The notes under the pieces are model-generated. The model was not told the DNA's origin. It searched no databases and worked only from the letters and a program-made list of their open reading frames with translations. From contig DASCRM010000008.1 in NCBI GenBank assembly GCA_034406555.1, forward strand, positions 1-62,042: a stretch of DNA of 62,042 nt, in the 5' to 3' direction. Positions 25,074 to 45,108 of this stretch are shown here, in pieces. Origin of the DNA: Dehalococcoidia bacterium (GTDB taxonomy: Bacteria; Chloroflexota; Dehalococcoidia; UBA2979). Both the position numbers and the translations under genes were made by a program. Every line of letters starts with the position of its first letter. Positions within the stretch are counted from its first letter, which is position 1.

Positions 25074-26279
25074 CTAGCCCCTCGGTAGGCCGAGCCCGCG
25101 CGTCGCGATGATGTTGCGCTGAATCTCGACCGTGCCACCGGCGATCGTGGATGAGACCGCGTTGACGTAGCCACGGGCGGTCGCGCCGTCGCGCGGGGCG
25201 TGCTCGCCCGCCCACACGTTCGTGTGCAGGCCGAAGAGCTTCGCCTCGGTGCCAGCCATCCGCTGATTAGTCTCGAAGATCGACATCTGCAGCATCGACG
25301 CCTCGTAGTTCGGCACCACGCCCTTCGCCTGCATCGAGACGACGCGGAACGCGAGGTTGAACGCGACCTCTACCTCGATTGCCCGATCGGCGATTTCGTG
25401 GCGCAGCGAGTCGTGCTCGCTGGTGCGCGAGCGGGCGCTGCCCTCCGTGGTTCCGAGGTAGTCGATCAGGTCCCGCAACTGACGCAGCGCACCAACCGCC
25501 TGACGGATGCGCGAGCGTTCGAAGTCCATCAGCGTCACGCTCACGTACCAGCCGCGATTCTCGTCGCCGACGCGGTTGCCTACAGGCACGTGCACGTCCT
25601 CGAAGAACGTCTCGTTGAACCCGTGCTGCCACGCCATGTTGATCAGCGGCTGCACCGTGACGCCGGGGCTCTTCATGTCCACCAGCAGGAAGGAGATGCC
25701 GCGGTGCTTCGGCGCCTCAGGGTCGGTACGCACCAGCATCGCGATGTGCTCCGCGTTGTGCGCGTTGGATGTCCAGATCTTCTGCCCGTTCAGCACGTAC
25801 TCGTCGCCGTCGCGCTCTGCGCGCGCCTGTAGCGAGGCGAGGTCGGAGCCAGAGCCCGGCTCGGAGAAGCCCTGACACCAGTTCGTCTCGCCGGAGAGGA
25901 TCTTCGGCAGGTACTCCGCCTTCAGCTCATCGCTGCCGTGGAGGATGATCGCGGGGCCAATCTGCGAGATTTCCTGGCCGCCGACCTGCGGCGCGCTCGC
26001 GCGGGCCATCTCGTGGTTGAAGATGAATTGCTCCATCGATGTCAGCCCGGCGCCGCCGTACTCCTTCGGCCACGCGGGGGCGATCCATCCCTTCGCGGCC
26101 AGCGCCTTCACCCAGCTATCAGAGAGCTGCTTACGCTCCGGGTCATCGGAGAACCGATCGGCCGACCACGCCATCGCCCCGTCCCGGTCGGGACGGTACC
26201 GCTCCGGTAGCTCCTCTTCGATGAACGTTCGCACTTCCGAGCGGAACGAAGCCTGCTCCGAATTGTCGGTCCACTCCAT
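25074..26279 (-). CDS. acyl-CoA dehydrogenase family protein
   Basis: 401-aa ORF with ACAD-like organisation (FSEPGSGSD; C-terminal IAGGTVEIQRNIIA). Confidence 0.85.
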   Translation of the reverse strand: MEWTDNSEQASFRSEVRTFIEEELPERYRPDRDGAMAWSADRFSDDPERKQLSDSWVKALAAKGWIAPAWPKEYGGAGLTSMEQFIFNHEMARASAPQVGGQEISQIGPAIILHGSDELKAEYLPKILSGETNWCQGFSEPGSGSDLASLQARAERDGDEYVLNGQKIWTSNAHNAEHIAMLVRTDPEAPKHRGISFLLVDMKSPGVTVQPLINMAWQHGFNETFFEDVHVPVGNRVGDENRGWYVSVTLMDFERSRIRQAVGALRQLRDLIDYLGTTEGSARSRTSEHDSLRHEIADRAIEVEVAFNLAFRVVSMQAKGVVPNYEASMLQMSIFETNQRMAGTEAKLFGLHTNVWAGEHAPRDGATARGYVNAVSSTIAGGTVEIQRNIIATRGLGLPRG

Positions 26280-26382
26280 GAGTCGTACCTCTCTGGCCGC
26301 TGCGGGCGTCGGCGATTGCTCGTGCGGGCACTATCGCACGGACTACTCCGACGTACTCCGGCTCGTCAGGTCGCTGAGCCCG

Positions 26383-26694
26383 TCAGCTCTCCGCTGCATG
26401 TCGGACAGTGCTCCCACAGCACGTAGTCGTACGGCCCCACGTATGCACGTCGTCGCCCTGCGACTCGACGACGTTGGAGCAGCCGGGGCAGTGCCAGCGG
26501 TACGAGCCGAGGCCGACAACCTCCAGCTCAACCTGCTCGCCCCACCAGCGTCTGAGGCCCTGCATCCCGGCCTCGCGACTGGGGAACGGCGATTCGCGCT
26601 CGTTGTAGCTGAAGTGCGCGGCGGCCGCTTCGATGAACTCGTCGAACGTGCGGATCAGCGGCCCCTCGGCGCCCTCGGCATCTTGCGAGGTCAT
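26383..26694 (-). CDS. hypothetical small Cys-rich protein (possible Zn-ribbon)
   Basis: 103-aa product from ATG 26694, which overlaps the stop of the upstream fused CoA-transferase by 4 nt (ATGA). C-terminal HCPGC...TCCGS cluster. No family recognised. Confidence 0.45.
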   Translation of the reverse strand: MTSQDAEGAEGPLIRTFDEFIEAAAAHFSYNERESPFPSREAGMQGLRRWWGEQVELEVVGLGSYRWHCPGCSNVVESQGDDVHTWGRTTTCCGSTVRHAAES

Positions 26695-29168
26695 CCGCGA
26701 GCGCTGGCGGCTGTCCCCGGTTCCCGCGCCGTCAGCCACGGGTCGTCCGGGATCGGGTCCAGCTCCGTGATCGCGCCCTGCTCCAGCAGCCACTCCATGG
26801 CGAGCGCGGCGCGCAGCGTCTGCAACGGCTCAAGCTGATGCCCGCTGACGGCATCTGCCCGCAGCTTCGCGATCTGATCCGCGTCGTATCCCAGTTCGCC
26901 CAGCACCTCGTCGGTGTGTTCGTCGAGCAACGGGGCGGGCGACGACGACGACGCGACGAACGTCTCGAAGCGAGCACCGAGGAAGCGGTGGTACAGCTTC
27001 TTGCCGACGCGCGGGTGGTCTGCCGGGAAGAAGTAGTCGCGCCCTCGAAGCTGCGGGTCGCGCAAGAGGTCGCGCCCGTTCTGCACCACGGCTGCTGGAA
27101 CGCCGCTCGCCTGCAGCAGCTCCATCACCTCGAACGGATCGCGCGTCTCGCACCACGTGCCGATCGCCGCGTCCAGCTCATCGACCCGCTCGCGCCGGGC
27201 GGGGAGATCGAGGCCCGCGAGCTGCTCCGCGCCGACCAACCGAGCGAGCGCGGTCCATTCGTCATCGTCGCGCGCCGTGATCGCGACCCAGCGGTCGTTG
27301 CCTGCGCACGCGTAGCAGCCCTGTGGAGCGAAACGCTCGTGTCGGTTGCCCAGCCGGGGCGCCAGCTCGCCACTGAGCTGGTAGTCGACGATCCGCTCGG
27401 CCATGAACGGCAGCACGGCGTCGCGCTCTGCGAGGTCGATGTAGAGCGCCCCCTTGCGTTCCCCGCTCTCGCGCTGCTGCAGCGCGTGCACGATCGCCCC
27501 GGCGGCCAGTACGCCGGAGATCGGGTCGGTGTACGCGAGCCCGCTCTTGATCGGCCGCTCGCCGGCGTAGCCGATTGTCGAGGTGATCCCCGACTCGGGC
27601 TCCAGCGCGTGTCCGTAGGCAGTGCGGTTGCGGGCCGGGCCGTCCTGCCCGTAGCCGGAGAGCGAGACCATCACCAGCTCGGGGCTGACAGCCAAGAGCT
27701 GGTCGTAGCCGAGCCCGAACTGCTCCATCACCCGTGGCCGGAAACTTTCCATCACCACATCGGCGTCTGCCACCAGCTGGAGGAAGACCTCTTTGCCCTC
27801 GGGTGCGTTTAGATCGAGGGTGATCGCACGCTTGCCGAGGTTCTTTTCGATGAAGTACCCACCGTAGTCCCAGTAGTCCGGATGCCCCTCGTTTCGGTCC
27901 TGTACGAGCGCCCGCACGGTGTCGGGACGACGAGGCGACTCGATCTTCACGACCTCCGCACCGAGGTCGGCGAGGATGCGCGAGGCGGCCGGTCCGGCCC
28001 ACACCCACGAGACATCGACGATGCGGACGCCTGCTAGCGGCTTCCCCGCCGGCTGCCCGCCACTCGTGCTGCCGATGCCGCCCGCCGCAGGCTCGAACGT
28101 CTCGTCGCTGTGTTCGCCGATCGCTGGGTACGATGCTGAAGCAGCGGCCGAATTCGACGTGCGGAAGGCGGGGCCAGGGACAACCACCTCGCGACCGTCG
28201 ATCGCGGTCGGCAGGAAGTACTCGCGGTGGATCAGCTGCTCGTCCTTCAGCAGGTCCGGCACCTCCAACACCGCGCCGAACGGCACGCCGAGCTCGTCGC
28301 ACGCCGTAATGATCTCCTTGCGCGTGTGTGCCGCGAGGAACGGGCGCAGCAAGTTGAAGAAGTCCTCCGCGTGCGTCAGCCGATAGCGAGGGTCGGTGAA
28401 CAGCGGGTCGTCGACGAGTTCGGGCCGGTCGATCAGGATCGCCAGCAGCGTCCCGGTGCCGGGATGCACGCCGATGTGCCCGTCCTTGCAGGGCAGCACC
28501 TCGCCCTGGATGCCCCATGGCACGCGACCGTGGAAGCGGGCGCGCACCGCGCCGGTGTAGTTGTAGAGCGTGCAGGCCATCTCGGCGGTCGCAGCGACAG
28601 CCTCGAACAGCGTCGTCTCCACCCGCTGACCCTCGCCGCCCTCGCGCTCCCGCAGCAGCAGTGCGGCGGCGGTCGCAGTGTAGGCGTGGATGCCCGCGAT
28701 GTACGCGGGGTGGTCGCCCGGAATCGAGAGCGGCTCGCGACGCGGAGTGCCGGTGATACCCATGATCCCGCCGAGCGCCAGCAACTGGATCGACTCCGCC
28801 TCGTAGCCGGCGTACGGCCCGTCGAGGCCGAAGTCGACGACCCACGAGCGGATCGCCCGCGGGTTCCACTCGCGCAGTTGATCGTCATCGATGCCCGCGG
28901 CAGCCAGTTCCGGCCCGCAGACGACCGCGTCGCACCACTGCACCAGCGTGCGCAGCCGCTCGCGCCCGTCCGAGCTGTCGAGGTCGATGCTCACGGAGCG
29001 CTTGCCGCGGTTCAGCGAGGCGAAGAGCCCGCCACTTGCTCGCTCGCGTGTCGCATCACCCTCGGGCGGCTCGACCTTCACGACGTCCGTGCCGTGGTCG
29101 GCGAAGAGCTGGCCGGCGAACGCACCGGCGATGCCGCGCGAGGTCTCAAGCAGTCGTAGCGCGGTCAC
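26691..29168 (-). CDS. tandem-fused double family III CoA-transferase (two CaiB/BaiF modules in one chain)
   Basis: 825 aa. Module 1 runs from GIAGAFAGQLFADHGTDVVKVEPPEGD to IGEHSDE. After a Gly/Ser linker, module 2 runs from VRIVDVSWVWAGPAASRILADLGAEVVKIESP to LLDEHTDEVLGELGY. Confidence 0.85.
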   Translation of the reverse strand: MTALRLLETSRGIAGAFAGQLFADHGTDVVKVEPPEGDATRERASGGLFASLNRGKRSVSIDLDSSDGRERLRTLVQWCDAVVCGPELAAAGIDDDQLREWNPRAIRSWVVDFGLDGPYAGYEAESIQLLALGGIMGITGTPRREPLSIPGDHPAYIAGIHAYTATAAALLLREREGGEGQRVETTLFEAVAATAEMACTLYNYTGAVRARFHGRVPWGIQGEVLPCKDGHIGVHPGTGTLLAILIDRPELVDDPLFTDPRYRLTHAEDFFNLLRPFLAAHTRKEIITACDELGVPFGAVLEVPDLLKDEQLIHREYFLPTAIDGREVVVPGPAFRTSNSAAASASYPAIGEHSDETFEPAAGGIGSTSGGQPAGKPLAGVRIVDVSWVWAGPAASRILADLGAEVVKIESPRRPDTVRALVQDRNEGHPDYWDYGGYFIEKNLGKRAITLDLNAPEGKEVFLQLVADADVVMESFRPRVMEQFGLGYDQLLAVSPELVMVSLSGYGQDGPARNRTAYGHALEPESGITSTIGYAGERPIKSGLAYTDPISGVLAAGAIVHALQQRESGERKGALYIDLAERDAVLPFMAERIVDYQLSGELAPRLGNRHERFAPQGCYACAGNDRWVAITARDDDEWTALARLVGAEQLAGLDLPARRERVDELDAAIGTWCETRDPFEVMELLQASGVPAAVVQNGRDLLRDPQLRGRDYFFPADHPRVGKKLYHRFLGARFETFVASSSSPAPLLDEHTDEVLGELGYDADQIAKLRADAVSGHQLEPLQTLRAALAMEWLLEQGAITELDPIPDDPWLTAREPGTAASARG

Positions 29169-29205
29169 AGTGCCTCGATCTCCTCGAACGGGCGGACCCG
29201 GCGTC

Positions 29206-29838
29206 TCAGGCCAAAGGGATGCCGAGCAGCTCCGGTGCGAGTTCAGCGCCCAGTTCCAGCGCCTGCTCGTTGACTGGGATGAAGCGGTGGCGGCCCGGCC
29301 GGATCGCGTCGTGCAGCGCCAGCTTCGCGCTCTCCTGACTGACGATGCCGGTGCGCTCGATCAGCGCGCCGAGCAGGATCATCGCCGCCATCAGCGGGTT
29401 GCCAAAGTGCTCCGCCGAGAGCTCGGTCGCGGAGAGTTCGATCACGTCCAGATCCTCGCGCGCGACACGCGTCTCGCCGGTGGTCGTCGCGCCGTCCGCT
29501 TCGTAGCGGAAGCGCTGCACCTCGCGCACGGAACGGTTGTAGACGACGAGGCCGCCGGACCGCACCATCCCCTCGTAGCGGGTGAGGCCGTTCGGGTCCA
29601 TCGCGAACAGCGAGGCGCAGGGCTGCTTGATCAGCGGCGGGGTCGTGATCTCGGTCTCGCTGAGGGCGACGATGCAGTCCGAGACGCCCCCGCGCTGCCC
29701 GCCATCGAAGAGGCTGTAGTAGAGCGCGCGCTTGCGCTCGTAGACCGCTGCGTTGGCCAGCGTCTTGCCGGCCACCTGGATGCCCTGGCCACCGATGCCC
29801 GCCAGCAGCACCACCTGGTCCTCGTTCGTACCGACCAT
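29206..29838 (-). CDS. 2-oxoacid:ferredoxin oxidoreductase, gamma subunit
   Basis: Internal ATG 29838 (MVGTNEDQVVLLAGIGGQGIQVAG). GxGGQG motif. Last gene of a delta-alpha-beta-gamma set. Confidence 0.8.
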   Translation of the reverse strand: MVGTNEDQVVLLAGIGGQGIQVAGKTLANAAVYERKRALYYSLFDGGQRGGVSDCIVALSETEITTPPLIKQPCASLFAMDPNGLTRYEGMVRSGGLVVYNRSVREVQRFRYEADGATTTGETRVAREDLDVIELSATELSAEHFGNPLMAAMILLGALIERTGIVSQESAKLALHDAIRPGRHRFIPVNEQALELGAELAPELLGIPLA

Positions 29839-29842
29839 CGCG

Positions 29843-30634
29843 CTAGCCTTTCGTCGCAAGCGGCTTGATGTCGCCGACGGGATTCTGCGCCACGATCACC
29901 TCGCCCTGGAACTTATTCGCCTGCACGGGGGTCATGCTCCAGCTCGTCGGACAGGTGGTGAGCAGGTCGACGAAGGCCATGCCGCGCCCCTCCAGCTGGC
30001 AACGCAACGCGTTCGCGATCACCTTCTGCGTGCGGTACGCGTGCGCGGGGTCATGCGTCGAGGCGCGCGCGACGTAGCCCGTGCCCGGCATCTGCGCCAG
30101 CATCTCCGCGACCGGGATCGGGTGTCCGTGCTGCGCGACCTCGCGGCCGCCCGGCGTGGTGCTCGAGGGGATCCCGATCGACCCGGTCGTCGTGAGCTGT
30201 CCGCCGGTGTCGGCGAGCACGCCGTTGTTGTACATGAAGACGGAGATGTTCTCCGCTCGAGCGGCCGTGTGGAACGTCTCGTTCAGCCCCTCCATCGCCA
30301 CGCCGCCGTCGCCGATGAAGACGCAGACGATCGCGTCCGGGAGGATGCGCTTGATGCCGGTGGCGACGGCGATCGTGCGGCCGTGACCGCCGACGGTCGT
30401 CTCGATCTCCAGCTGCGCCGCGACCTGCGTCACACAGCCGATGTCCACGACGCCGATGATGCGAGTGTCCGCAGGGAGCTTGTCGAACTCCGCGTTGAAG
30501 GTGCGAGGGAGGATGCCGTAGCCGCAGCCCGGGCACCACGCCTGATCGGGTACCTCGGCGGCGTCCGGGCCACCAAAGACCGGCACCATGTCTTCGAGTT
30601 TGATGCCGGCGGGGACTCGCGGTTCGGTCGTCAT
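29843..30634 (-). CDS. 2-oxoacid:ferredoxin oxidoreductase, beta (TPP-binding) subunit
   Basis: 263 aa with CPGCGYGI and a GDGG TPP motif (FIGDGGVAMEG). Confidence 0.85.
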   Translation of the reverse strand: MTTEPRVPAGIKLEDMVPVFGGPDAAEVPDQAWCPGCGYGILPRTFNAEFDKLPADTRIIGVVDIGCVTQVAAQLEIETTVGGHGRTIAVATGIKRILPDAIVCVFIGDGGVAMEGLNETFHTAARAENISVFMYNNGVLADTGGQLTTTGSIGIPSSTTPGGREVAQHGHPIPVAEMLAQMPGTGYVARASTHDPAHAYRTQKVIANALRCQLEGRGMAFVDLLTTCPTSWSMTPVQANKFQGEVIVAQNPVGDIKPLATKG

Positions 30635-31782
30635 CAGGACGCTCCCAGCTTCTTGTACTCGGCGCGGACTTCCGCGCTCACCTCGGCGAGCGTGGGGACG
30701 ACGCCTCCGGGCCTCGCGTAGAGCAGCGGGTGCTCGCCGAGTGCCAGCCTCACATCCTCGGCCATCTGTCCGACGCTCAGCTCCACGACCATGATTGTGC
30801 TGCTCTTCGCCTCATCGACCAGGATCTGCTCGGGGAACGGGAACAGCGTCTGCGGCCTGATCAGGCCGACATCCAGCCCGTCCGCACGCAGCTCATCGAC
30901 GACGACGCGCACGATGCGGGCCATTGTCCCGATCGCGACCAGGTTCAGCTTCGCGCCTTCGGTGCGGTATCTCTCCGCCTGAGGCTCGACGACCTTGTAG
31001 CGCTCCCAGCGGTCCCACGCGGCAGTTTCGAGGTAGAGGAAGCGGCTGGCGCGTTCCTCCTCCGGGACGGCCTCTGACGAGGACGAGACGCCACCCTCGT
31101 CGCGGATCTCCGCGCGTTGCACGGGACGCTCGCGTGGCCCTCGCTCGCCCGTCAGCGCGCGCTCGCGCAGGCCGGGATTGATCCGCGGCGGCAACGCGAC
31201 GACCTCCGTGGATTTCGCGATGCTGTAGTCGGTGTAGACCGTGACCGGCCCGCGAATCTGCTCCGCGACATCGAAGGCGTGGTAGGTGAAGTCGACGAGT
31301 TCCTGCACGCCCTGAGGTGCGAAGACGATGTTGCGGAAGTCGCCGTTGGCGGGCGCCTTCACGGCCTGCCAGTAGTCGCCCTGTGACGGGCTACCGGTCG
31401 GGCCGGTGCCGGGACCGCCCCGTACCCAGTGCGAGATCACCAGCGGCACGCCGTCGCGGGCGGCGTACGAGACCATCTCGCCCATCAGCGCGATGCCGAC
31501 GCCGGTGGAGCCGACCATCACGTGCGCCCCGGCCTTGCTCGCGCCGTACGCGTACCAGCCGCCCTCCATCTCGCTCTCGCACGTGAGGCTGATGGCATCG
31601 TACTCGGGCGCTCGCTTCAGATACTCCTCGTTGACCTCGTTGATCGGGGTCATCGGATAGACGCTGAAGAGCTTGCAGCCGGCGCGCAGCACCGTCTCCG
31701 CCAGCGCTTCCTCTGCGCTCAGGAACGCGAACTCGGGCGCGTCCGCATCGCTCGTTGCCGCCGTCGCCGTCACATCAGGCAT
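30634..31782 (-). CDS. 2-oxoacid:ferredoxin oxidoreductase, alpha subunit
   Basis: Internal ATG 31782 (MPDVTATAAT...FSVYPMTPINEV). It overlaps the delta stop by 8 nt and the beta start by 1 nt. Confidence 0.8.
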   Translation of the reverse strand: MPDVTATAATSDADAPEFAFLSAEEALAETVLRAGCKLFSVYPMTPINEVNEEYLKRAPEYDAISLTCESEMEGGWYAYGASKAGAHVMVGSTGVGIALMGEMVSYAARDGVPLVISHWVRGGPGTGPTGSPSQGDYWQAVKAPANGDFRNIVFAPQGVQELVDFTYHAFDVAEQIRGPVTVYTDYSIAKSTEVVALPPRINPGLRERALTGERGPRERPVQRAEIRDEGGVSSSSEAVPEEERASRFLYLETAAWDRWERYKVVEPQAERYRTEGAKLNLVAIGTMARIVRVVVDELRADGLDVGLIRPQTLFPFPEQILVDEAKSSTIMVVELSVGQMAEDVRLALGEHPLLYARPGGVVPTLAEVSAEVRAEYKKLGAS

Positions 31783-33415: not shown

Positions 33416-33418
33416 TAC

Positions 33419-37753: not shown

Positions 37754-38426
37754 AGCGCAGCTCCTGCTCGCAGCGGTCGAGGCGAAGCGTCAATCCGAGC
37801 TCCGCGCGCAGCCGATCGACGATCGATGACTCGACCGTCGCCATCATCGGGGCAACGCCGAGCAGGCTCTCCATCGACGCGACGCTCGCATCGGCAATCC
37901 CACACGCGACGATCGAGTCGAACCACGACAGATCCGTGCTCACATTCAGCGCCATGCCGTGCGTCGAGACGCCGCCCTTCACCCGAACACCGACGGCGGC
38001 GACCTTCGCGTCGCCGCACCAGACGCCCGGCCGTCCCTCGATGCGGTCGCCGCGCAGCCCGCAGTCGCGCAGCGCGTCGATCGCGACCGCTTCGAGCGCC
38101 CGCACGTAGTCAACGGCCGCGATCCCGCGCGCCCGCAAGTCGAGGATCGGGTAGACTACGAGTTGTCCTGGCCCGTGGAAGGTGACATCCCCGCCGCGAT
38201 CACTTTCGACGATCTCCGCGCCCTGCGCCGCCAGCTCCTCGGCGCTGCGCAGTACGTGCTGCAGGCCGCCGCGGCGGCCCAGCGTGTAGACAGGCGGATG
38301 CTGGAGCAGCGCGACAGTTTCGTCGCCACCGCTGCATACCAGCGCGTGGGTATTGCGCTGCCAGCGCAATACCGCGGAGTAGTCGACGGGACCGGGTTGC
38401 AGGAGCCGGACCGTCGCTGCCATCAC
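37743..38426 (-). CDS. lipB: lipoyl(octanoyl) transferase
   Basis: 227 aa with RGGDVTFHGPGQLVVYPI and VACGI motifs. Overlaps lipA by 11 nt. Confidence 0.85.
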   Translation of the reverse strand: MMAATVRLLQPGPVDYSAVLRWQRNTHALVCSGGDETVALLQHPPVYTLGRRGGLQHVLRSAEELAAQGAEIVESDRGGDVTFHGPGQLVVYPILDLRARGIAAVDYVRALEAVAIDALRDCGLRGDRIEGRPGVWCGDAKVAAVGVRVKGGVSTHGMALNVSTDLSWFDSIVACGIADASVASMESLLGVAPMMATVESSIVDRLRAELGLTLRLDRCEQELRCAG

Positions 38427-38455
38427 CCCCCACCCCTCAGTCTCCGCGCGTAATC

Positions 38456-38947
38456 CTACTGCCGGGACTTCAGTTCGGCGTCTGCCGTGGGCCGAAACTG
38501 AGGCAGCGTGATCTCGTCGCTCATGTCCTCGAATATCACTTCCACCGGCATCCCGCAGTAGATGTCACTCAGCTCGCACTCACGCATGTTCGTTGTGATC
38601 CGAACCGTGTCGCTCTGCGCCTCGGCCGGCGTGACCTGCAGCACCGCGTACGGTTCGTCGAAACTCGGCGTCATCAGGCGACGGTCGATCACAAACGTGT
38701 AGACAGTCCCCAGCCCGCTGAGCTGCGGCCAGTCGAAGTCGCTGGCGCCGCACTGCGCGCACTGTTCCTGCGGCGGGTGCTGGTAGTCCGAGCACGCGCG
38801 GCACCGCTGGATGCGAAGCTCATGCTTGCGGGCGGCGTCCCAGTACGGCCTGCTGATATCGTCCGGCAGCGGGACGGGCCTGACACCCATCTCCTTCAGC
38901 TGTTCCTGGCCCTCGCGCGTCTGAACGTTGGGAGTCTCGGACGTCAT
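38456..38947 (-). CDS. Zn-ribbon/OB-fold protein (DUF35 family)
   Basis: 163 aa with a four-Cys ribbon (CRACSDYQHPPQEQCAQCG) followed by an OB-like segment (GTVYTFVIDRR). Sits directly downstream of the thiolase-like gene. Confidence 0.75.
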   Translation of the reverse strand: MTSETPNVQTREGQEQLKEMGVRPVPLPDDISRPYWDAARKHELRIQRCRACSDYQHPPQEQCAQCGASDFDWPQLSGLGTVYTFVIDRRLMTPSFDEPYAVLQVTPAEAQSDTVRITTNMRECELSDIYCGMPVEVIFEDMSDEITLPQFRPTADAELKSRQ

Positions 38948-38971
38948 GTGGGTCTCCTCGCTGGGTGCGCG

Positions 38972-40111
38972 CTACTTGACGGAAAGAATTCCGGCCGCCC
39001 CGGTGTAGGGGAAGACGGAGGAGATGATCGAGGTATTGTGGTTCTTCGCCTGTCGCACGCCCGCTGTCCCGCGTAGCTGCTGTGTCGCCTCCAGCAGGTG
39101 CCCCATCCCATGCAACCGGCCCTCCGAGAGCTGCCCCCCGTGGGAGTTCACCGGATGCTCCGCGCCAATGCGGATGTTGTCGCCGCCCTTGATGTAGTCG
39201 CCTGCTTCCCCACGCCCGACGAGGCCGAGGTTCTCCATCCACATCGAGGCGAAGAAGCTGAAGCCGTCGTACGGGAACCAGACGTCCATCTCCTTCGGGC
39301 CGAGGCCCGCGTCGCGATAGAGCTCCTCTGCCAGCGGCGTGATCCCCTCCAGCGGTTCCGCCACCATGTGATCCAACGTGCGAACCTGCGACGCTGCCCA
39401 CGCCTTCAGGTAGACTGGCGGGTGCTTCAGGCCCTTCGCGATGCTGTCGCGGGTCATCAGGATCGCGAACGCGCCGTTCACCGGCATGTCGCAGTCGAAC
39501 AGTCGCACTGGCTCGGCGATGTAGCGCGCGGCCATGTAGTCGTCGATCGTCATCGGCGTCTTCATCACAGCCCATGGGTTGAGCAGCGCGTGCTCGCGCT
39601 CAACGACCGGCAACCAGCCCATGTCCTCCTCGGTGTAGCCGTAGCGGTGCATGTAGGCGCGTGCGTTGAGACCCACCCGTTGCATGCTGTAGCCGAGGCC
39701 GTAGGGCACCTCGAACTGCGTGGGGCCGGCGACGCCGCCTGAGCCGGGGTCGATCTGCGGCGTCGTGACCGGGGCGATCGTGTTCATGATCTTGACGATC
39801 AAGACCTGGTCGCACTCGCCCGCCTCGATCGCCAGCGCGGCGATCCCGCACGGCTCGATGCCCATCCCGCCCTCGCGCTGCCAGCGTACGTCCTTCATCC
39901 CCAGCCCGCTTACGATGTCCGCCGTGTCGGGCGCGGGGTAGTGGTGCACCTGTGGGTTGATACCATCGACGTCGGCGGGGTCGACGCCGGCGTCCTCGCA
40001 CGCCATCCGGCAGGCCTCGATCGCCAGCTCTGTCTCGGGGCGCTCAAGCTTGCGTGTCGCGTTCGTGTAGCCGCAGCCGACGAACGCTATCTTTTCCCGG
40101 GTCTTCGCCAT
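38972..40111 (-). CDS. thiolase-like protein (SCP-x / lipid-transfer-protein type)
   Basis: Internal ATG 40111 (MAKTREKIAFVGCGYTNATRK). 379 aa with thiolase-fold organisation. Pairing with a DUF35 gene is typical of this subgroup. Confidence 0.75.
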   Translation of the reverse strand: MAKTREKIAFVGCGYTNATRKLERPETELAIEACRMACEDAGVDPADVDGINPQVHHYPAPDTADIVSGLGMKDVRWQREGGMGIEPCGIAALAIEAGECDQVLIVKIMNTIAPVTTPQIDPGSGGVAGPTQFEVPYGLGYSMQRVGLNARAYMHRYGYTEEDMGWLPVVEREHALLNPWAVMKTPMTIDDYMAARYIAEPVRLFDCDMPVNGAFAILMTRDSIAKGLKHPPVYLKAWAASQVRTLDHMVAEPLEGITPLAEELYRDAGLGPKEMDVWFPYDGFSFFASMWMENLGLVGRGEAGDYIKGGDNIRIGAEHPVNSHGGQLSEGRLHGMGHLLEATQQLRGTAGVRQAKNHNTSIISSVFPYTGAAGILSVK

Positions 40112-40184
40112 CGACGCCAGTCCTTCTCTCGCTATCTGCCCCGACGTACTTCCCCGACGCACTCTACGCCCCTGCCACGAGTCG

Positions 40185-42503
40185 CTACGCAGGCGGGTCC
40201 AGCAGCAGTACGCCAGCCTCAGCGAGCGCGGCCACCGACGAGGCGTCGTAGCCGAGCTCTGCGAGTAGTTCGCGAGCGTGCTCCGAGAGCAACGGTGCCC
40301 GCCGTTGAATCTTCACGCCGGTCTCCGACGCGTGGATCAGCGCCCCCACGTTGACGGTCTCGCCCCACGGTCCGTGCTGCTCCGTCACAACGAGCTCGTT
40401 GGCGATCGTCGAGGGGTGAGTGAGCACTTCGTGCCGCGGCACGATCGCGTTGCAGGGGACGCCGGCTGCATCGAGCGCGGCGATCCACTCATCCAGCGGC
40501 CTGCTCGCGAACGCCTCGGCGAGCGCGACGGCAGCGCTCCCATCGGCTGGCTGCGCGCAGTCGGACACGCCGAGGTCGGTGCCCGTCGCGGCGATCAGCG
40601 CTAGCCGCTGCTCGCCGTTCGTCGCATCGACCCAGATGTCGCGGGAATCGCTGCAGCGGTACCAGCGCTGCCCCGCCGAGGGCCCGGCGAAGTCGCGTCC
40701 TCCTCGTTGGTGCGTCGCACCGGAGTAGCGGGTGAATTCAGCAGCCTGGTAGGCCATGGCTGTCCGCAGCAGCGACGTTCGCACCAGCTGGCCTTCTTCG
40801 GTTCGCTCGCGCATCGCGAGCGCCGTGCAGGTGGCGAACGCGGCGACTATCGCGTGCACTTGGTCCGTGACCGCGACCGTGTAGCGCACTGGCTCACCAT
40901 CGCCACCCTGCGCATCGACGATGCCCGCGAGCGACTGCACCAGCGGGTCGAAGACCGGGACGTCGCGCATCGTCTCGTCGTCGCCGAAGCCGGGCTGCAC
41001 CACGTAGATCAGCCGCGGATTGATGGCGCGCAACGTCTCGTAGTCGACCCCCAGGCGGTCGCTCACACCGGGCCGGAAGCTCTCGAGTACGACATCGACG
41101 GTCGCGGCGAGGCGCTGCACCACTTCTCGCCCCCCGGGCGTACGCAGGTCGAGCGTGATCGAACGCTTTCCCTGGTTCCACCCGAGGAAGCCGAGGCCTG
41201 AGACTCGGAAGGGTTCTCCACGCGGAGGCTCCACCTTGATCACGTCCGCGCCGAGCATTGCAAGATGCCGCCCCGAGATGGGCCCGGCAAGGAACTGCGT
41301 GAGGTCCAGCACGCGGACGCCGGAGAGCAGATGCGGCCCCGGCGCCTCGTCTGACGTGGGCGCGGAGGTGGGCGGAGGTCGGCGGCCAGCCAACAGCTCG
41401 CTTGTGTGCTCGCCGAGCCGTGGTGCCGGGCCGCCCACCTCGCCCGGTGCCGCCTCGAGCAGCAGCGGCACGCCCATCATCTCGATCTCGCCGAGCTGGG
41501 GGTGCTGTACGGCGACGCGCATCTGGTTGCGGCGAGCCAGGTCGCTCTCGAGGAACTCGTCGCGTGTCTGCACCGGCTGCGCGGGGACATCGGACGCTCG
41601 GAAGTGTGTGACCCAGTGGTCGCGAGGCTGCGTGAGGAACAACGACTCGAGCAGCGGCCCGAGCACAGCCTTCGCTTCGGGCGTGTTCTGGCCCAGCGGG
41701 GTGTCACCCAGCCGTTCGTCTGCCAGCAGATCGGTGCGATCAATCGCGATCAACAGCTTGTGGTAGAACTCCGCCGAGACGCAGCCTAGGTAGAACCACT
41801 TACCGTCGCTCCCCTGGTGAAGGCGATAGGCGGGCAGGGTGCCTCTGCCGCCGGTCTCGGATGGCTCCTTCACCCTCGGCGGAATCGCCTCCGACTCGAC
41901 CTGCGCACCCAGCTGCAGCGCCAGCGACCCGGCGAGGCCCGACACCTCCACCATCTGCCCGATGCCCCAGCGCGTGCGCGCCCGCACAGCGGCGGCGAGC
42001 GCCATCGCACCCAGCGCCGCGGTGCCGTACTCCGCGATCGGAAGCGCCAGGCTGACCGGGTCTCCGGAGTACGACTCCTGCCCCTCGGTCATTCCGTTCG
42101 CCGCGTGCAGTAGTCCCGCAGAGGCGGGTCGGTCAACCAGCGGGCCGCGCTCGCCGTAGGGTGGCATCGCCAGGTACATGAGCGCCGGGTTCGCCGAACG
42201 CAGTGTCTCGTAGTCGATCCCCAGCGAGCGCGCCTGTCCCTGCGGGAGATCGACGATCACCGCGTCGGCGCCACCAGCGAAGCGGAGCGCCGCGCTGCGT
42301 CCCTCGTCATCCCGCAGGTCAAGGACACAGGAACGTTTGCCGCGGTTGAACGTCTGGAAGCCCGGCTCAGCCCGATACGGGTCGCCGCCCGGCGGCTCCA
42401 CCTTCACGACATCGGCACCGTGATCGGCGAAGAACATGCCGGCGTAGGGCCCGGCGATGCCGGTCGAGAAGTCGAGGATCTGCAACTCGTCGAAAGCAGA
42501 CAA
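40185..42503 (-). CDS. tandem-fused double family III CoA-transferase
   Basis: Likely TTG start at 42503, 8 nt after AAGGAG (LSAFDELQILDFSTGIAGPYAGMFFADHGADVVKVEPPGGD). Module 1 ends at RLGEHTSELL. Module 2 starts at VRVLDLTQFLAGPISGRHLAMLGADVIKVEPP and ends at LLSEHARELLAELGY. The 70 upstream codons of the track ORF are Arg/Ser junk. Confidence 0.8.
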   Translation of the reverse strand: MSAFDELQILDFSTGIAGPYAGMFFADHGADVVKVEPPGGDPYRAEPGFQTFNRGKRSCVLDLRDDEGRSAALRFAGGADAVIVDLPQGQARSLGIDYETLRSANPALMYLAMPPYGERGPLVDRPASAGLLHAANGMTEGQESYSGDPVSLALPIAEYGTAALGAMALAAAVRARTRWGIGQMVEVSGLAGSLALQLGAQVESEAIPPRVKEPSETGGRGTLPAYRLHQGSDGKWFYLGCVSAEFYHKLLIAIDRTDLLADERLGDTPLGQNTPEAKAVLGPLLESLFLTQPRDHWVTHFRASDVPAQPVQTRDEFLESDLARRNQMRVAVQHPQLGEIEMMGVPLLLEAAPGEVGGPAPRLGEHTSELLAGRRPPPTSAPTSDEAPGPHLLSGVRVLDLTQFLAGPISGRHLAMLGADVIKVEPPRGEPFRVSGLGFLGWNQGKRSITLDLRTPGGREVVQRLAATVDVVLESFRPGVSDRLGVDYETLRAINPRLIYVVQPGFGDDETMRDVPVFDPLVQSLAGIVDAQGGDGEPVRYTVAVTDQVHAIVAAFATCTALAMRERTEEGQLVRTSLLRTAMAYQAAEFTRYSGATHQRGGRDFAGPSAGQRWYRCSDSRDIWVDATNGEQRLALIAATGTDLGVSDCAQPADGSAAVALAEAFASRPLDEWIAALDAAGVPCNAIVPRHEVLTHPSTIANELVVTEQHGPWGETVNVGALIHASETGVKIQRRAPLLSEHARELLAELGYDASSVAALAEAGVLLLDPPA

Positions 42504-42561
42504 CGAAGGCACTCCTTTACTCAGAGCCCCGCGGGGCCTCTCTGCGTCCCGTGGTGCTCGG

Positions 42562-45108
42562 CTAGACGAGCACCTTCTCCAGCAGCAACTCGGCGATCTC
42601 GTCGGACGAGAGACCGAGTACCTCCGAGCAGACTTCGTATGTGTGCTCGCCGAGCAGCGGGGACGGCCCGCGAATCTCCACCGGCGTGCGCGAGAGACTC
42701 CACGCAGGCCCATCGTGCGCTCGGCGTCCGGCCTCGGCGTGTTCCGGGTAGACGAAGTAGCCGCGCGCCGCCAGGTGGTCGTCGTTCAGCACATCGAGCG
42801 CCTCCTGTACCACCGTCGCCGGCACGTCGACCGCCTGCAGGCACTCAACGGCCGCGACCTCGTCCTGCGTGACCGCCCACTCAGCGACGAGCGCTTCCAG
42901 CGCGTCCTCGTTCGACTTCCGATCCGCGAGCGTCGTGAATCGCGGGTCGTCCGCCCACTCGGGGTGCCCGCAGGCCGCTGCGAAGGCCTGCCAGCGAGGC
43001 TCCGTGTCACACGCGATCGCCACCCACCGGTCTTCGCCCAGCACCTGGAACGCGCCGTGCGGCGCCGCCCACGGGACACGGTTGCCCTCCCGACGGTGCT
43101 CGAGGCCAGCGTTGTCGTACGCGAACAACGGCATCGCCATCGCAGCCACGGACGACTCCAGCTGCGACATGTCGATCAACTGGCCCTCGCCGGTGTTTCG
43201 CCGGTGGCGCAGCGCCGCAAGCAGCGCGACCGTCGCGTGCATCGGATTGATGGAGAAGTCCGGGTAGCTGCCCGGGCCGGTCGGTGCTCGATGCTCGGAG
43301 CCCATCGTGTAGAATGCACCGCCGATCGCGCAGAGCACCGCGCCGAAGCCCAGGAAGCCCTGGTGCGGGCCGTCCAGTCCCTGCATCGACTGGTAGAGTG
43401 CAATGATCTTCGGGTTCGCCTCGATCACGACGTCCGGCGTTAGCCCGATCTGCTCGATCGCGCGGTTCGTCATGTTCGTCAAGAAGATGTCCGCCCAGCG
43501 GACGAGGCCCAGTCCCAGCTCGTGGCCCCGCTCCGTGGTGAGGTCGATGGTCACCGAGCGCTTCTCGTTGTTGAAGTTGTTGAAGTAGCCCGAGACGTTG
43601 TAGCCCTCGGCGCCGGGAGGCCGTGGCGATCCGATTCGCAGCCCGTCGGGGCGCTTCTCGGTCTCCACGCGGATCACTTCCGCGCCTGCGAGGGCGAGCG
43701 CCCGCGCCGCGATCGGCCCGGCTCCGAACCACGAGAGGTCGAGTACCTTCAGCCCCTCAAGTGGTCGCTGCGCCACTCGCGTCCCGTTGCCCTCGTTGCT
43801 GGCGGGTGGGGCCGCGGTTGTGCGTGCGGGGGCCGCGGCTAGCTCGCGTTCGATCTCCGCGTCGTGTTCGCCGAGCAGGGGAGCGGGACGCCGGATCGAA
43901 GCTGTCGAGGCCCCAAGCAGCCACGGTTGGCCGGGATAACGCAGCTCCACGCCTCGTCCGGGGTCGTCGACGCGGGTGAACCAGTCACGCGCCGCCAGTT
44001 GGGGGTTCTTCGAGAGGTCTGCCGGCGTGCTCACCATCCCGATCGAGATACGCCGACGCTGCCCTTCCTCGTAGAGGTACTGCTTCGTGTGGTTGCGCAT
44101 GAAGCGCCTCACCACCACGTCGATCTGCTCCAGCAGCGGTTCCGCGTCGCCCGCTTGCGCCGGGTCCTGCATCACGGCGGTGATCCGGCCCGCGGCCAGC
44201 GTGCCGCTGATGAACTCAGCCAGCGGAGCGACGCGCAATTCGCCCGCCTCGTCCGTCTCCTCCATGAAGTCGACGAGCCCGGCGATCCCGGAGCCGACGC
44301 CGCCCAGCATCGCGAAGACATGCCCGTCCTCGCATTCGTACGTGCCGAGGCCTGGCATCACGAAGCCCAGACGCGGGTTCTCCCCGCGTCGCTTGATCGA
44401 GAAGCCGAGGATGTCCGCAGTCGGCAGTGCGTTCTGCTGCGCGATCGACATCGCTTCCTGCATTGAGACCTCGACCTGCTGGCCCTCACCCGACAGGTCG
44501 CGGTGATGCAGCGCGGTCAGGATGCCGGCGGCGGCCGCGATCGCCGCGGACCGGTAGCCCTGGACGTCACCCAACCGCTCTGGCGGTTGGCCTGGAAAGC
44601 CGCTCTGCGCCATCACGCCTGCAGCCGCGACCCCGATCATGTCGGAGTACGCCCAACCCGCTCGCGGGCCGCTCAGCCCCCACCCGGTGATCGACGCGCG
44701 GATCAGGTCGGGGCGAAGCCGCGAGAGCTGCTCGTGCTCAAACCCCTCGGGAGCTTCTCCCGGCCGCCACGACTCGATCAGGATGTCTGCCGCTGCGACC
44801 AGCCGGCTCAGCCCCTCCCGGCCGTCCGAGGCGGAGAGATCGAGGCAAATCCCGCGCTTGTTGGCGTTTAGCAGCAAGAAATCGAGGCTGTTCTCGGGTG
44901 CGTCGACCGTTGGCAGGAAGGGGTCCCAGCGGCGCACCGGGTCGCCCTCCGGCGGCTCCACCTTGATCACATCTGCGCCGAGGTCGGCCAGTAGTCGCCC
45001 GGTGTACTGCCCAATGGGCCCGGAGACTTCGATTACACTGAGATCGGCGAGTGGCCCAGTCACGCGGCGATTCTGGAGGCTGCGGGCGCGACGAGTCAAA
45101 GGCCCCAA
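42562..45108 (-). CDS. tandem-fused double family III CoA-transferase
   Basis: 848-aa ORF. Module 1 runs from LSVIEVSGPIGQYTGRLLADLGADVIKVEPPEGD to LLGEHDAEI. Module 2 runs from LKVLDLSWFGAGPIAARALALAGAEVIRVE to LLGEHTYEVCSEVLGL. The start is uncertain (ATG 45108 or GTG 45063). Confidence 0.8.
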   Translation of the reverse strand: MGPLTRRARSLQNRRVTGPLADLSVIEVSGPIGQYTGRLLADLGADVIKVEPPEGDPVRRWDPFLPTVDAPENSLDFLLLNANKRGICLDLSASDGREGLSRLVAAADILIESWRPGEAPEGFEHEQLSRLRPDLIRASITGWGLSGPRAGWAYSDMIGVAAAGVMAQSGFPGQPPERLGDVQGYRSAAIAAAAGILTALHHRDLSGEGQQVEVSMQEAMSIAQQNALPTADILGFSIKRRGENPRLGFVMPGLGTYECEDGHVFAMLGGVGSGIAGLVDFMEETDEAGELRVAPLAEFISGTLAAGRITAVMQDPAQAGDAEPLLEQIDVVVRRFMRNHTKQYLYEEGQRRRISIGMVSTPADLSKNPQLAARDWFTRVDDPGRGVELRYPGQPWLLGASTASIRRPAPLLGEHDAEIERELAAAPARTTAAPPASNEGNGTRVAQRPLEGLKVLDLSWFGAGPIAARALALAGAEVIRVETEKRPDGLRIGSPRPPGAEGYNVSGYFNNFNNEKRSVTIDLTTERGHELGLGLVRWADIFLTNMTNRAIEQIGLTPDVVIEANPKIIALYQSMQGLDGPHQGFLGFGAVLCAIGGAFYTMGSEHRAPTGPGSYPDFSINPMHATVALLAALRHRRNTGEGQLIDMSQLESSVAAMAMPLFAYDNAGLEHRREGNRVPWAAPHGAFQVLGEDRWVAIACDTEPRWQAFAAACGHPEWADDPRFTTLADRKSNEDALEALVAEWAVTQDEVAAVECLQAVDVPATVVQEALDVLNDDHLAARGYFVYPEHAEAGRRAHDGPAWSLSRTPVEIRGPSPLLGEHTYEVCSEVLGLSSDEIAELLLEKVLV

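Follow-up and report, generated by a model that had tools for sequence, protein, structure and literature searches.

The window, i.e. the whole 62,042-nt stretch of contig DASCRM010000008.1 that was analysed, contains 17 consecutive minus-strand genes between 25074 and 45108, as determined from the open reading frame listing and GC3 frame analysis. On either side lies a plus-strand gene, DinB at 24485-25021 and the divergent gene at 45205-46386. After refinement of the start codons by ribosome-binding site and alignment, the junctions from the first CoA-transferase (CoAT1) to the acyl-CoA dehydrogenase (ACAD) measure 49, 73, 24, 29, -11, -8, 31, 37, 3, 126, -8, -1, 4, 37, -4 and 103 nt, reproducing the co-directionality and the range of -11 to +126 nt given in an earlier sequence-only reading. 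The families named in that reading were all recovered with Pfam and NCBIfam, apart from corrections to the 45205 gene, the thiolase and the small Cys ORF. They comprise three proteins each with two CoA_transf_3 modules, Thiolase_C_1 and zf-ChsH2/OB_ChsH2_C (DUF35) proteins, LipB, LipA and E3 (these three scoring over their NCBIfam cut-offs), E1alpha, E1beta, E2, OFOR delta, alpha, beta and gamma, and an acyl-CoA dehydrogenase. Families, module boundaries and conservation were taken from tool results. The features of the three modules, A, B and C, are as follows.

45205-46386, plus strand: divergent gene of module A; Pfam CoA_transf_3, family III CoA-transferase fold, probably an MCR-like 2-methylacyl-CoA racemase
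42562-45063, minus strand: CoAT1; two CoA_transf_3 stretches, fused family III, N half BbsE-like and C half BbsF-like
40185-42512, minus strand: CoAT2; two CoA_transf_3 stretches, fused two-module family III of generic CaiB/BaiF type
38972-40111, minus strand: thiolase-fold protein belonging to the aldolase-like Ltp2/Sal branch; lacks the nucleophilic Cys, carries a YDGF motif and the invariant Arg332
38456-38947, minus strand: stand-alone DUF35 protein; Pfam zf-ChsH2 and OB_ChsH2_C, C4 zinc ribbon and OB fold
38443-38485, minus strand: A/B joint; 43-nt segment common to relatives of module A (L118) and of module B (L127)
37743-38423, minus strand: lipB, octanoyl/lipoyl transferase; NCBIfam NF010925, 191 bits against a cut-off of 155
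36866-37753, minus strand: lipA, lipoyl synthase; NCBIfam NF004019, 408 bits against a cut-off of 203
35458-36873, minus strand: E3, dihydrolipoyl dehydrogenase; TIGR01350, 513 bits against a cut-off of 409
34461-35426, minus strand: E1 alpha, PDH-type; Pfam E1_dh, TIGR03182 at 344 bits, under the cut-off of 394
33419-34423, minus strand: E1 beta; NF006667 (PDH E1 beta), 338 bits against a cut-off of 321
32147-33415, minus strand: E2 acyltransferase; Pfam Biotin_lipoyl, E3_binding and 2-oxoacid_dh (lipoyl, E3-binding and catalytic domains)
32051-32067, minus strand: module C leader, candidate internal promoter element; conserved CTGCTGAGGTAGTATCC with a -10-like TAGTAT
31775-32020, minus strand: OFOR delta, 2x[4Fe-4S] ferredoxin subunit; Fer4 families, two CxxCxxCxxxCP motifs
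30634-31782, minus strand: OFOR alpha; Pfam POR_N and PFOR_II, VorB-like NF005507 at 274 bits, under the cut-off of 399
29843-30634, minus strand: OFOR beta, TPP-binding; Pfam TPP_enzyme_C, every NCBIfam beta-subunit model under cut-off
29206-29838, minus strand: OFOR gamma; Pfam POR
26691-29168, minus strand: CoAT3, fused two-module family III CoA-transferase, BbsEF-like by its PDB 9fn0 matches
26366-26694, minus strand: small protein resembling a Zn ribbon, with RRWWGE...CPGC...CPxC; its translation is coupled to that of CoAT3, called ORF 26383-26694
25074-26279, minus strand: acyl-CoA dehydrogenase, pimC-like; three ACAD Pfam domains, TIGR03204 at 268 bits against a cut-off of 624

Module A (38456-46388) comprises the divergent racemase-like gene, two fused CoA-transferases of heterodimer type, the thiolase-like protein and DUF35. 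It is conserved on three contigs with protein identities of 88-97%, and lipB follows DUF35 in none of them. L112 and L113 are collinear with the window at the nucleotide level (88.7%), and the limits of this collinearity coincide with the stop codons of the racemase-like gene (46388) and of DUF35 (38456); in L118 it extends to 38443. DUF35 is followed by Rdx/UGSC genes in L112-114, by a convergent gene in L118 and by a convergent CoA-transferase in L119-121. Module B (32132-38485), lipB-lipA-E3-E1alpha-E1beta-E2, is intact in five loci at 68-97%, with different flanks each time. All six genes, headed by lipB, are collinear in L127 (90.9% at the nucleotide level), L129/L130 (82.6%) and L131/L132 (80.5%); the conserved blocks end at 38485 or 38435 and at 32132 or 32146, and E3 orthologues (94%, 83% and 81%) lie within the identical six-gene order. 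Module C (26403-32067), OFOR delta-alpha-beta-gamma with the fused BbsEF-like CoA-transferase and the small Zn-ribbon protein, recurs in two relatives at 49-76%, interrupted by ABC-transporter genes. In both, L122 and L125, the order is OFOR, three ABC-transporter genes, CoAT3 (fused or split) and the small Cys protein. The conserved block begins at 32067 (L126) or 32019 (L122).

Neither inter-module junction was kept in any relative examined. The DUF35-lipB junction was absent from all 10 loci anchored on the thiolase-like gene and all five anchored on E3, and the E2-OFOR delta junction from all four loci with sequence downstream of E2 and all six OFOR-anchored loci; these relatives are mostly short metagenomic contigs, in which the modules could still sit within tens of kb of each other. 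The proposal that the 17 genes form one dedicated, undescribed route was thus not upheld. Gene order in relatives, whose lack of conservation had been named beforehand as speaking against it, is kept in three separate blocks and not across the whole array. The array is likely to consist of three separately inherited units of transcription or function set head-to-tail, in a catabolic region rich in paralogues on the genome of an aerobic, SAR202-like member of the Dehalococcoidia.

The divergent 45205 gene had been called a further CoA-transferase, which was not confirmed: alpha-methylacyl-CoA racemases match it best, with MCR and Far racemases as top PDB matches (E 7.5e-66) versus about 1e-45 for transferases. 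Its product contains a GHDINY motif with an Asp 30 residues further on, and this His and Asp match MCR His126 and Asp156. The gene is 90-91% conserved in L112 and L113 and, judged by its sequence, probably encodes a 2-methylacyl-CoA racemase. CoAT1 matches PDB 9fn0_B over residues 431-833 (E 9e-77) and 9fn0_A over residues 8-404 (E 2e-52) and is 92-93% conserved in L112, L113 and L118. CoAT2, for which generic CaiB/BaiF and formyl-CoA transferases are the best PDB matches, is 88% conserved in L112, L113, L114 and L118.

In Pfam the thiolase-like protein matches Thiolase_C_1 alone, and in the PDB the Ltp2 aldolase comes first (6ok1_A, E 3.7e-50). The earlier label of thiolase is not appropriate, since the protein lacks the nucleophilic Cys and resembles the Ltp2/Sal retro-aldolases, with a YDGF/Arg signature of its own. 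The Cys is replaced by Gly in 114 of 117 homologues, YDG is kept in 115-117 of the 117 and Arg332 in all of them (the meaning of these motifs was taken from PMC12329534). The DUF35 protein bears a CxxC-x10-CxxC motif, best matches ChsH2(DUF35) (6ok1_B, E 6.8e-21), adjoins the thiolase-like gene in 10/10 related loci and is the partner of the thiolase-like protein. C-C cleavage had been left as thiolytic or aldol-type; for the thiolase-like/DUF35 pair an aldol-type reaction is more likely.

Three known systems are comparable to module A. The steroid side-chain retro-aldolases Ltp2-ChsH2(DUF35) and Sal-Shy(DUF35) (PDB 6ok1, 9myr; PMC12329534) are the closest to the thiolase-like/DUF35 pair, which best matches chains A and B of 6ok1. 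Like Ltp2 and Sal, the window protein has Gly for the nucleophilic Cys and keeps the catalytic-base Tyr and the Asp of YDxF; its partner has a C4 zinc ribbon, as in Ltp2-ChsH2, and the close relatives L119-121 carry a MaoC hydratase pair upstream, like ChsH1-ChsH2. The window motif is YDGF, unlike YDHF (Ltp2) and YDCY (Sal), and an invariant Arg occupies the place of Ltp2 Tyr344 and Sal Gln352. The window DUF35 is free-standing rather than joined to a hydratase, the neighbourhood has CoA-transferases instead of steroid genes, and the host is a marine-type Dehalococcoidia. The bbs operon, which serves anaerobic toluene degradation (BbsEF CoA-transferase, BbsG, BbsH, BbsCD, BbsAB thiolase), likewise has a heteromeric family III CoA-transferase, whose subunits BbsE/BbsF (PDB 9fn0) are the best matches of CoAT1 and CoAT3, and likewise has, for C-C cleavage, a thiolase-fold protein partnered by DUF35. 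Unlike in bbs, the transferase subunits of the window form a single fused chain, and the thiolase-like protein, which has no catalytic Cys, fits BbsB far more weakly (E 5.6e-21) than Ltp2. Module A has no BbsG/H/CD equivalents, the window encodes no fumarate-adding glycyl-radical enzyme, and the organism has oxygenases. DddD, a DMSP CoA-transferase/lyase, also carries tandem family III domains on one polypeptide (positions 1-416 and 439-821; PMC7174347), and some SAR202 transferases are reported to match it (PMC5395668). The window transferases are set beside DddD by description only; in structure they are nearest to BbsE/BbsF and generic CaiB/BaiF proteins, and they have no DMSP genes nearby.

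Module B shares with pyruvate/acetoin dehydrogenase-type operons the heterotetramer-type E1alpha/E1beta, three-domain E2 and E3. E1alpha best matches human PDH E1alpha (E 7e-57), ahead of BCKDH (1e-34), and all 80 of its nearest loci carry E1alpha-E1beta(-E2-E3). As in such operons with lipoate genes, lipA and lipB are adjacent, also in L045 and L080; the order lipB-lipA-E3-E1alpha-E1beta-E2 is specific to the present Dehalococcoidia group. E1alpha and E2 fall under NCBIfam equivalog cut-offs, so the substrate could be pyruvate, acetoin or another 2-oxoacid. The products would form a pyruvate-dehydrogenase-type lipoamide complex with its own lipoylation genes, probably with a housekeeping role. 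The middle third of the array is an ordinary PDH-type operon, of the sort whose presence had been named beforehand as speaking against a single route; modules A and C are uncharacterised. In L002 and L131, too, PDH-type genes have fused CoA-transferases within a few kb, which could reflect a looser association or the mere high density of such genes.

As in four-subunit OFORs (VorDABC/KorDABC/OorDABC), module C encodes a delta subunit with 2x[4Fe-4S], followed in the customary order by alpha, the TPP-binding beta and gamma. Alpha scores best with VorB and delta with OorD, and PDB 1yd7 is the nearest structural relative. Unlike in typical OFORs, every subunit scores under the equivalog cut-offs, and alpha falls into a very small clade, with 7 clusters at ≥67% identity followed by a fall to 42%. 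The genes linked to the OFOR are also atypical; they encode a BbsEF-like CoA-transferase, a TetR regulator, an ABC transporter (SBP_bac_5) and a novel small Zn-ribbon protein. CoAT3 matches 9fn0_B over residues 376-770 (E 2.9e-65) and 9fn0_A over its N half (E 2.3e-27); its orthologue is fused in L122 (59%) and encoded by two genes, the N and C halves, in L125 (51-52%). The small Cys protein, without Pfam or NCBIfam matches, belongs to a family of about 10 members among 1.84 billion representatives, and homologues directly follow the CoA-transferase in L122 (55%) and L125 (49%). The 103-aa ORF described earlier is a copy of a CPGC...CPxC protein of about 109 aa, frameshifted by 1 nt at the G-run 26433-26439. 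The combination of OFOR, two-module CoA-transferase and small Cys protein, conserved together in L122 and L125, is thus a real, rare and uncharacterised unit. The ACAD is perhaps loosely associated with it: a 46% homologue lies divergently upstream of OFOR in L125 and an SDR is present instead in L122. Upstream of OFOR in L108 and L122-L126 lie unrelated ORFs or a divergent TetR gene (the latter in three relatives), and E2 in none of the six. The leader at 32051-32067 is common to the window and L126 despite differing upstream genes, and relatives carry promoter-like TTGACA-N17-TAGxxT elements upstream of OFOR-delta; this pattern is suggestive only of an internal promoter of module C.

Modules A and C could together form one bbs-like pathway for substituted dicarboxylates, with BbsEF-type transferases, an OFOR giving succinyl-CoA as CoA donor, ACAD and aldolase/thiolase, the PDH operon being merely inserted between them. 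The shared BbsE/BbsF matches of CoAT1 and CoAT3, the pimeloyl-CoA-dehydrogenase-like ACAD, an OFOR delta nearest to OorD/OGOR delta, and the MaoC hydratases or SDRs that relatives of A bear, steps absent here, are consistent with such a pathway. It is nevertheless improbable, as A and C never occur together in relatives, the modules of CoAT1 and CoAT3 are just 24-35% identical, OFOR alpha is nearest to VorB-type rather than KorA/OorA models, and the array has no hydratase or 3-hydroxyacyl-CoA dehydrogenase.

A single 17-gene super-operon, performing CoA transfer to an organic acid, 2-oxoacid decarboxylation and C-C cleavage, is very unlikely. Only 10 of 20 neighbouring gene pairs outside the run are co-directional within the window, so an unbroken run of 17 looks striking; if the run is three operons of 4, 6 and 7 genes, just two inter-operon junctions must be co-directional, which by chance would occur in about 1 in 4 to 1 in 2 cases. 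The inter-module gaps are short, 29 nt (A/B) and 126 nt (B/C), and neither showed a terminator or a strong sigma-70 promoter, so that all 17 genes may be co-transcribed here by read-through. The A/B adjacency may also have some evolutionary depth: the blastn block limits of L118 and L127 overlap at 38443-38485, and L127 retains a DUF35 3'-end remnant (ADAKLMSRQ*, 25/30 nt) upstream of lipB, by which the joint appears older than the present genome. Against a super-operon, neither inter-module junction occurs in any of about 20 related loci, module B is conserved alone in lineages without A and C nearby, and in relatives module C comes with a promoter-like element and a TetR gene of its own; the lipoamide complex and OFOR, moreover, are two 2-oxoacid-oxidising systems and would be redundant rather than sequential. 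More doubtful still is a chimeric contig joined at short shared sequences, for although the assembly is imperfect, with two or more 1-nt frameshifts in conserved genes of the window, and the A/B joint lies inside the 43-nt stretch common to two contexts, GC content and codon usage are uniform over both joints, L127 independently carries the DUF35 remnant beside lipB, as would be expected of a joint that exists or once existed, and the B/C joint has 65 nt of unique sequence without a repeat.

The window also encodes luciferase-like monooxygenases, a flavin monooxygenase, EthD, MaoC, ECH, SDR, further ACADs and another CoA-transferase, and this catabolic content agrees with the paralogue expansions reported for SAR202 (PMC5395668). 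The enzyme families of the proposed organic-acid CoA-transfer and 2-oxoacid route were right, its unity as a single pathway was not supported; for the three separately inherited units favoured here, substrates, reaction order and co-transcription are inferred. Module B is ordinary, and modules A and C are uncharacterised versions of known system types. In module A, the CoA-transferases would most likely activate carboxylic acids that are branched or substituted, transferring CoA without ATP, the MCR-like racemase would epimerise a 2-methyl centre, and the thiolase-like/DUF35 pair would cleave a beta-hydroxyacyl-CoA by a retro-aldol reaction. In module C, the OFOR would oxidatively decarboxylate a 2-oxoacid to an acyl-CoA, feeding, or fed by, the CoA-transferase.

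ORFs were listed, translated and filtered by their GC content at codon positions, which gave 17 consecutive minus-strand genes between 25074 and 45108. This bears out the co-directional array described in the sequence-only reading, and each gene family named there is supported by Pfam and NCBIfam profile matches. The G+C content is ~68% throughout the window, and the array is flanked by two plus-strand genes:

24485–25021, plus strand, DinB family gene at one flank of the array
45205–46386, plus strand, divergent gene with a family III CoA-transferase fold at the other flank

Start codons were picked using ribosome-binding sites and homology before the junctions were measured, giving junctions of 49, 73, 24, 29, -11, -8, 31, 37, 3, 126, -8, -1, 4, 37, -4 and 103 nt.

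The further claim that these 17 genes form a single undescribed metabolic system found no support. When the 17-gene unit was compared with related loci, the DUF35–lipB and E2–OFOR-delta joints were absent from every related locus examined. Since the flanks differ for each module and relatives are collinear block by block, the array resolves into three blocks with nucleotide-level limits. Module A (38456–46388) comprises the divergent gene, two fused two-module family III CoA-transferases (CoAT1 and CoAT2), a thiolase-like gene and DUF35. Module B (32132–38485) has the order lipB-lipA-E3-E1alpha-E1beta-E2, and Module C (26403–32067) contains the 2-oxoacid:ferredoxin oxidoreductase (OFOR) genes delta-alpha-beta-gamma, a third fused transferase (CoAT3) and a small Cys protein, with an acyl-CoA dehydrogenase (ACAD) loosely attached. 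Three units lying end to end would best explain the array, and we consider this reading probable.

Close relatives of the thiolase-like protein were identified at 97, 95, 91 and 81–82% identity. Loci L112, L113 and L118 keep the whole of Module A, from the divergent gene to DUF35, at 88–97% protein identity and 88.7–89.3% nucleotide identity, and collinearity ends precisely at the stop codons of the divergent gene (46388) and of DUF35 (38456; 38443 in L118). The DUF35 gene is followed in relatives by Rdx/UGSC genes (L112–L114) or by a convergent gene (L118), with no lipB. In L119–L121 (91%) a MaoC hydratase pair precedes the thiolase-like/DUF35 pair and a convergent transferase follows it, and in L115–L117 (82%) the pair lies amid split and fused transferases and an SDR gene. 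The Rdx (SelW-like) gene and the UGSC-family genes that come after DUF35 in L112 (11896–12728), L113 and L114 are missing from the window.

Relatives of E3 at 94, 83 and 81% identity all lie within the lipB-lipA-E3-E1alpha-E1beta-E2 order (L127 and L129–L132). Nucleotide collinearity of Module B stops at 38485/38435 and, at the opposite end, at 32132/32146. Different upstream and downstream genes flank the module in every lineage, and these loci have neither DUF35 upstream nor OFOR downstream. The best matches anchored on E1alpha, L001 (76%) and L002 (65%), are without lipB-lipA-E3; they are probably paralogous complexes and were left out as Module B orthologues. An E1alpha-anchored scan of the genome collection returned mostly generic PDH/aco-type operons.

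Upstream of OFOR-delta, relatives carry either a divergent TetR gene (L108, L124 and L125) or unrelated ORFs (L122, L123 and L126), and E2 was not found there in any of these six loci. Downstream of OFOR in L122 and L125, three ABC-transporter genes are followed by the CoAT3 orthologue and a homologue of the small Cys protein. L124 (8843–8982), L125 (2779–2911) and L108 (500–648) have in common a promoter-like element, GCTTGACAG-N-AATCGxGCGGTTAG(A/T)(T/G)T. It lies between OFOR-delta and the divergent TetR gene and may be a TetR operator/promoter.

The limits of blocks A and B overlap over 43 nt (38443–38485), a stretch common to relatives of both flanking modules, and L127 retains a remnant of the DUF35 3′ end directly upstream of lipB (ADAKLMSRQ*, 25/30 nt identical). 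From these sequences, the A–B joint probably dates back to an ancestor that the window shares with its nearest relatives, and it was broken later. This also argues against any selection for keeping the joint. Beside the three-unit explanation, the likeliest alternative is a single dicarboxylate pathway shared by Modules A and C and interrupted by Module B, which we judge unlikely. A genuine 17-gene pathway, with both inter-module joints missing from the related loci, is more improbable still. Assembly chimerism has the slightest chance of all; the L127 remnant of an older, later-broken joint argues that the A–B joint is real and not an artefact.

Block C covers only the proximal 47 nt of the 126-nt E2–OFOR-delta spacer, and CTGCTGAGGTAGTATCC within these 47 nt is common to the window and L126. 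More distant relatives have clear TTGACA-N17-TAGxxT promoters at the OFOR-delta leader position, and an internal promoter before OFOR-delta in the window is weakly suggested. A consensus scan of the inter-module gaps detected no terminators or strong promoters, with counts no higher than in shuffled sequence, so read-through transcription is possible in the window genome.

Within Module B, E1beta, E3, LipA and LipB scored above curated NCBIfam cut-offs, E1alpha scored 344 bits against a cut-off of 394, and E2 was likewise under its equivalog cut-off. The best PDB match of E1alpha is human PDH E1alpha. Pfam and NCBIfam matches identified E1alpha/E1beta, an E2 with lipoyl-Lys, PSBD and catalytic domains, and E3, and by these profiles the module reads as an ordinary PDH-type complex. 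Module B would be the PDH-type complex of the cell, together with the machinery for its lipoylation, the substrate being predicted. An exact-sequence look-up of the window's E2 gave no match.

The OFOR has a standard four-subunit architecture by Pfam, with delta, alpha (POR_N and PFOR_II), beta (TPP) and gamma (POR) subunits, and the delta translation contains two CxxCxxCxxxCP motifs. All substrate-specific NCBIfam equivalogs fell below cut-off; oxalate oxidoreductase, phenylglyoxylate dehydrogenase and indolepyruvate oxidoreductase were rejected as identities with scores far below it. The OFOR alpha clade is very small, consisting of seven clusters at at least 67% identity with the next at 42%. 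A metagenome scan with OFOR alpha recovered distant relatives (≤42%) only, the exception being L108, a 1.2-kb fragment. A TARA ocean sample is the source of one close relative of the OFOR.

The sequence-only reading had proposed thiolytic or aldol C–C cleavage, and the residues of the thiolase-like protein favor the second of these. Alignment with HMMER to thiolase 7yvy places Gly81 at the position of the nucleophilic Cys, where 114 of 117 homologues have Gly. The xDCx (HDCF) motif that carries the acid/base Cys of thiolases is YDGF in this family, with Gly in 117/117 homologues; the equivalence of the YDxF-type motif to HDCF and the roles of the catalytic residues are taken from PMC12329534. 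Replacement of both Cys residues by Gly rejects a canonical (SCP2-type) thiolase, and the missing Cys together with a much better match to Ltp2 rejects a true BbsAB thiolase for the pair. Tyr281, the catalytic base in the YDxF motif, is kept in 115/117 homologues and Asp282 in 116/117. The adjoining DUF35 protein (163 aa) matches zf-ChsH2 and OB_ChsH2_C, has a CxxC-x10-CxxC arrangement and finds its best PDB match in 6ok1_B; a zinc-ribbon partner of this kind, Cys4 or Cys3His, belongs to the Ltp2/Sal complexes. Taken together, the two proteins best match the Ltp2–ChsH2(DUF35) aldolase complex. The third residue of the motif is Gly here, whereas it is His in Ltp2 (YDHF), where it forms the oxyanion hole, and Cys in Sal (YDCY). 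Arg332, invariant in 117/117 homologues, stands where Ltp2 has its second catalytic Tyr (Tyr344) and Sal has Gln. Of the two options the aldol one is favored, as a predicted retro-aldol reaction of variant mechanism in place of thiolysis. The YDGF/Arg signature sets this thiolase-fold/DUF35 pair apart from both known steroid aldolase classes.

The N halves of CoAT1 and CoAT3 best match PDB 9fn0_A and the C halves 9fn0_B, so that each of these proteins joins a BbsE-like half to a BbsF-like one. CoAT2, also with two modules, is a family III protein of more generic type. Two-module family III proteins are not new, since DddD carries two CaiB domains (PMC7174347). In a MAFFT alignment, all three C-terminal modules have Asp at the catalytic (Y/V)(P/T)D position. 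The N-terminal modules are ambiguous, with a shifted GD (CoAT1 and CoAT3) or Glu (CoAT2) at this place in the alignment. L122 has a fused CoAT3 orthologue (59%), and in L125 the orthologue occurs as two genes matching the N and C halves (51–52%). At L125 9389–11856, L115 6804–9321 and L122 16114–18561 the same CoA-transferase is fused in some loci and two adjacent genes in others, which documents fusion/fission of a heterodimeric family III enzyme. The bbs-type operon likewise has a heteromeric BbsE/BbsF-like transferase, matched here by the fused CoAT1/CoAT3, but its BbsG (ACAD), BbsH (hydratase), BbsCD (dehydrogenase) and BbsAB (true thiolase) set is not in Module A, where a profile search found no ACAD, hydratase or SDR.

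The divergent single-module gene at 45205–46386 had been read as a further CoA-transferase. Its product matches racemases far better in the PDB search (best racemase 7.5e-66 versus best transferase 4e-45) and contains GHDINY followed by an Asp 30 residues on, a His/Asp spacing that we take to be that of the MCR catalytic pair. Similarity and the His/Asp pair agree with a predicted alpha-methylacyl-CoA racemase (MCR/Amacr). Just past Module A, at 46383–48723 (minus strand), lies a pair of radical SAM genes, of which one encodes a SPASM domain. The longest ORFs of the pair share ~400 nt, and codon-position GC is atypical in the upstream gene.

The small Cys gene at 26366–26694 (minus strand) is disrupted by a 1-nt deletion in the G-run 26433–26439, and the family-consensus C-terminus (PYDYVLWEHCPTC...) sits in the +2 frame. 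Addition of one G restores a 109-aa CPGC...CPTC protein; either the assembly has an indel here or the gene carries a genuine inactivating mutation. No Pfam or NCBIfam match was obtained, the frameshift-corrected version included, and the AlphaFold model (pLDDT 72.6) had no PDB fold match (best E 0.55). Only ~10 relatives of the protein were found in a set of 1.84 billion representatives.

For the E1alpha, E3 and thiolase-like proteins, the closest relatives among genomes are Dehalococcoidia MAGs. Outside the array, the window contains several luciferase-like monooxygenases, one flavin monooxygenase, two EthD proteins, MaoC and crotonase hydratases, an SDR, a carboxyltransferase, MFS transporters, two further acyl-CoA dehydrogenases and one further gene with the family III CoA-transferase fold. 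This is a paralogue-rich catabolic repertoire as in SAR202, where, next to the monooxygenases, no expanded family is more prominent than the CaiB/BaiF-type transferases (PMC5395668). One luciferase-like monooxygenase (8952–10117, minus strand) is read as two overlapping ORFs owing to a 1-nt frameshift near ...ADVYALW. It brings the frameshifts in 62 kb to two, and this suggests homopolymer/indel errors in the assembly. A 1114-aa ORF with CopC, CopD and cytochrome c domains (52612–55956, minus strand) adjoins a second CopC protein (55860–56480, minus strand). The region at 48–52 kb has a lower GC (~62–64%) and holds several ORFs without a family match and a small ORF with RTX calcium-binding nonapeptide repeats (52184–52444, plus strand). 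No RNA family was detected by Rfam in the whole window, and a repeat search of the window returned paralogous CoA-transferase segments only, with no mobile-element ends at the module joints.

Both Module A and Module C belong to known types, of which they are uncharacterised variants. Module A would activate and epimerise branched or substituted acyl groups and cleave a beta-hydroxyacyl-CoA, and Module C would couple oxidative decarboxylation of a 2-oxoacid to CoA transfer, with the OFOR-made acyl-CoA possibly acting as CoA donor; the substrates of both are predicted. A bolder proposal, which we hold only tentatively for its two parts jointly, is that Module C encodes a so far undescribed system for the catabolism of an imported 2-oxoacid/dicarboxylate, confined to a small Dehalococcoidia clade, and that the YDGF/Arg thiolase-fold clade of Module A forms a mechanistic class of its own among DUF35-dependent aldolases, the third after Ltp2 and Sal. 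Module C would then combine the rare OFOR clade, a BbsEF-like (fused or split) transferase, the ~105-aa RRWWGE/CPGC...CPxC zinc-ribbon protein, an SBP_bac_5 ABC transporter and TetR, with the zinc-ribbon protein acting as a new accessory subunit of either the transferase or the OFOR.

In SAR202-like Dehalococcoidia, long co-directional arrays can be concatenated operons. Paralogous CoA-transferases, dehydrogenases and oxygenases crowd such genomes, so gene order that relatives have kept should be the anchor of any pathway prediction. Two leads follow from the present array: the aldolase-like clade with its YDGF/Arg signature, and the rare OFOR whose steady companions are a BbsEF-type CoA-transferase and an almost orphan zinc-ribbon protein. 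Either could throw light on the processing of branched or substituted carboxylic acids, derived from recalcitrant organic matter, by these abundant ocean bacteria, a long-standing question of which the observations on Modules A and C make a small part testable.
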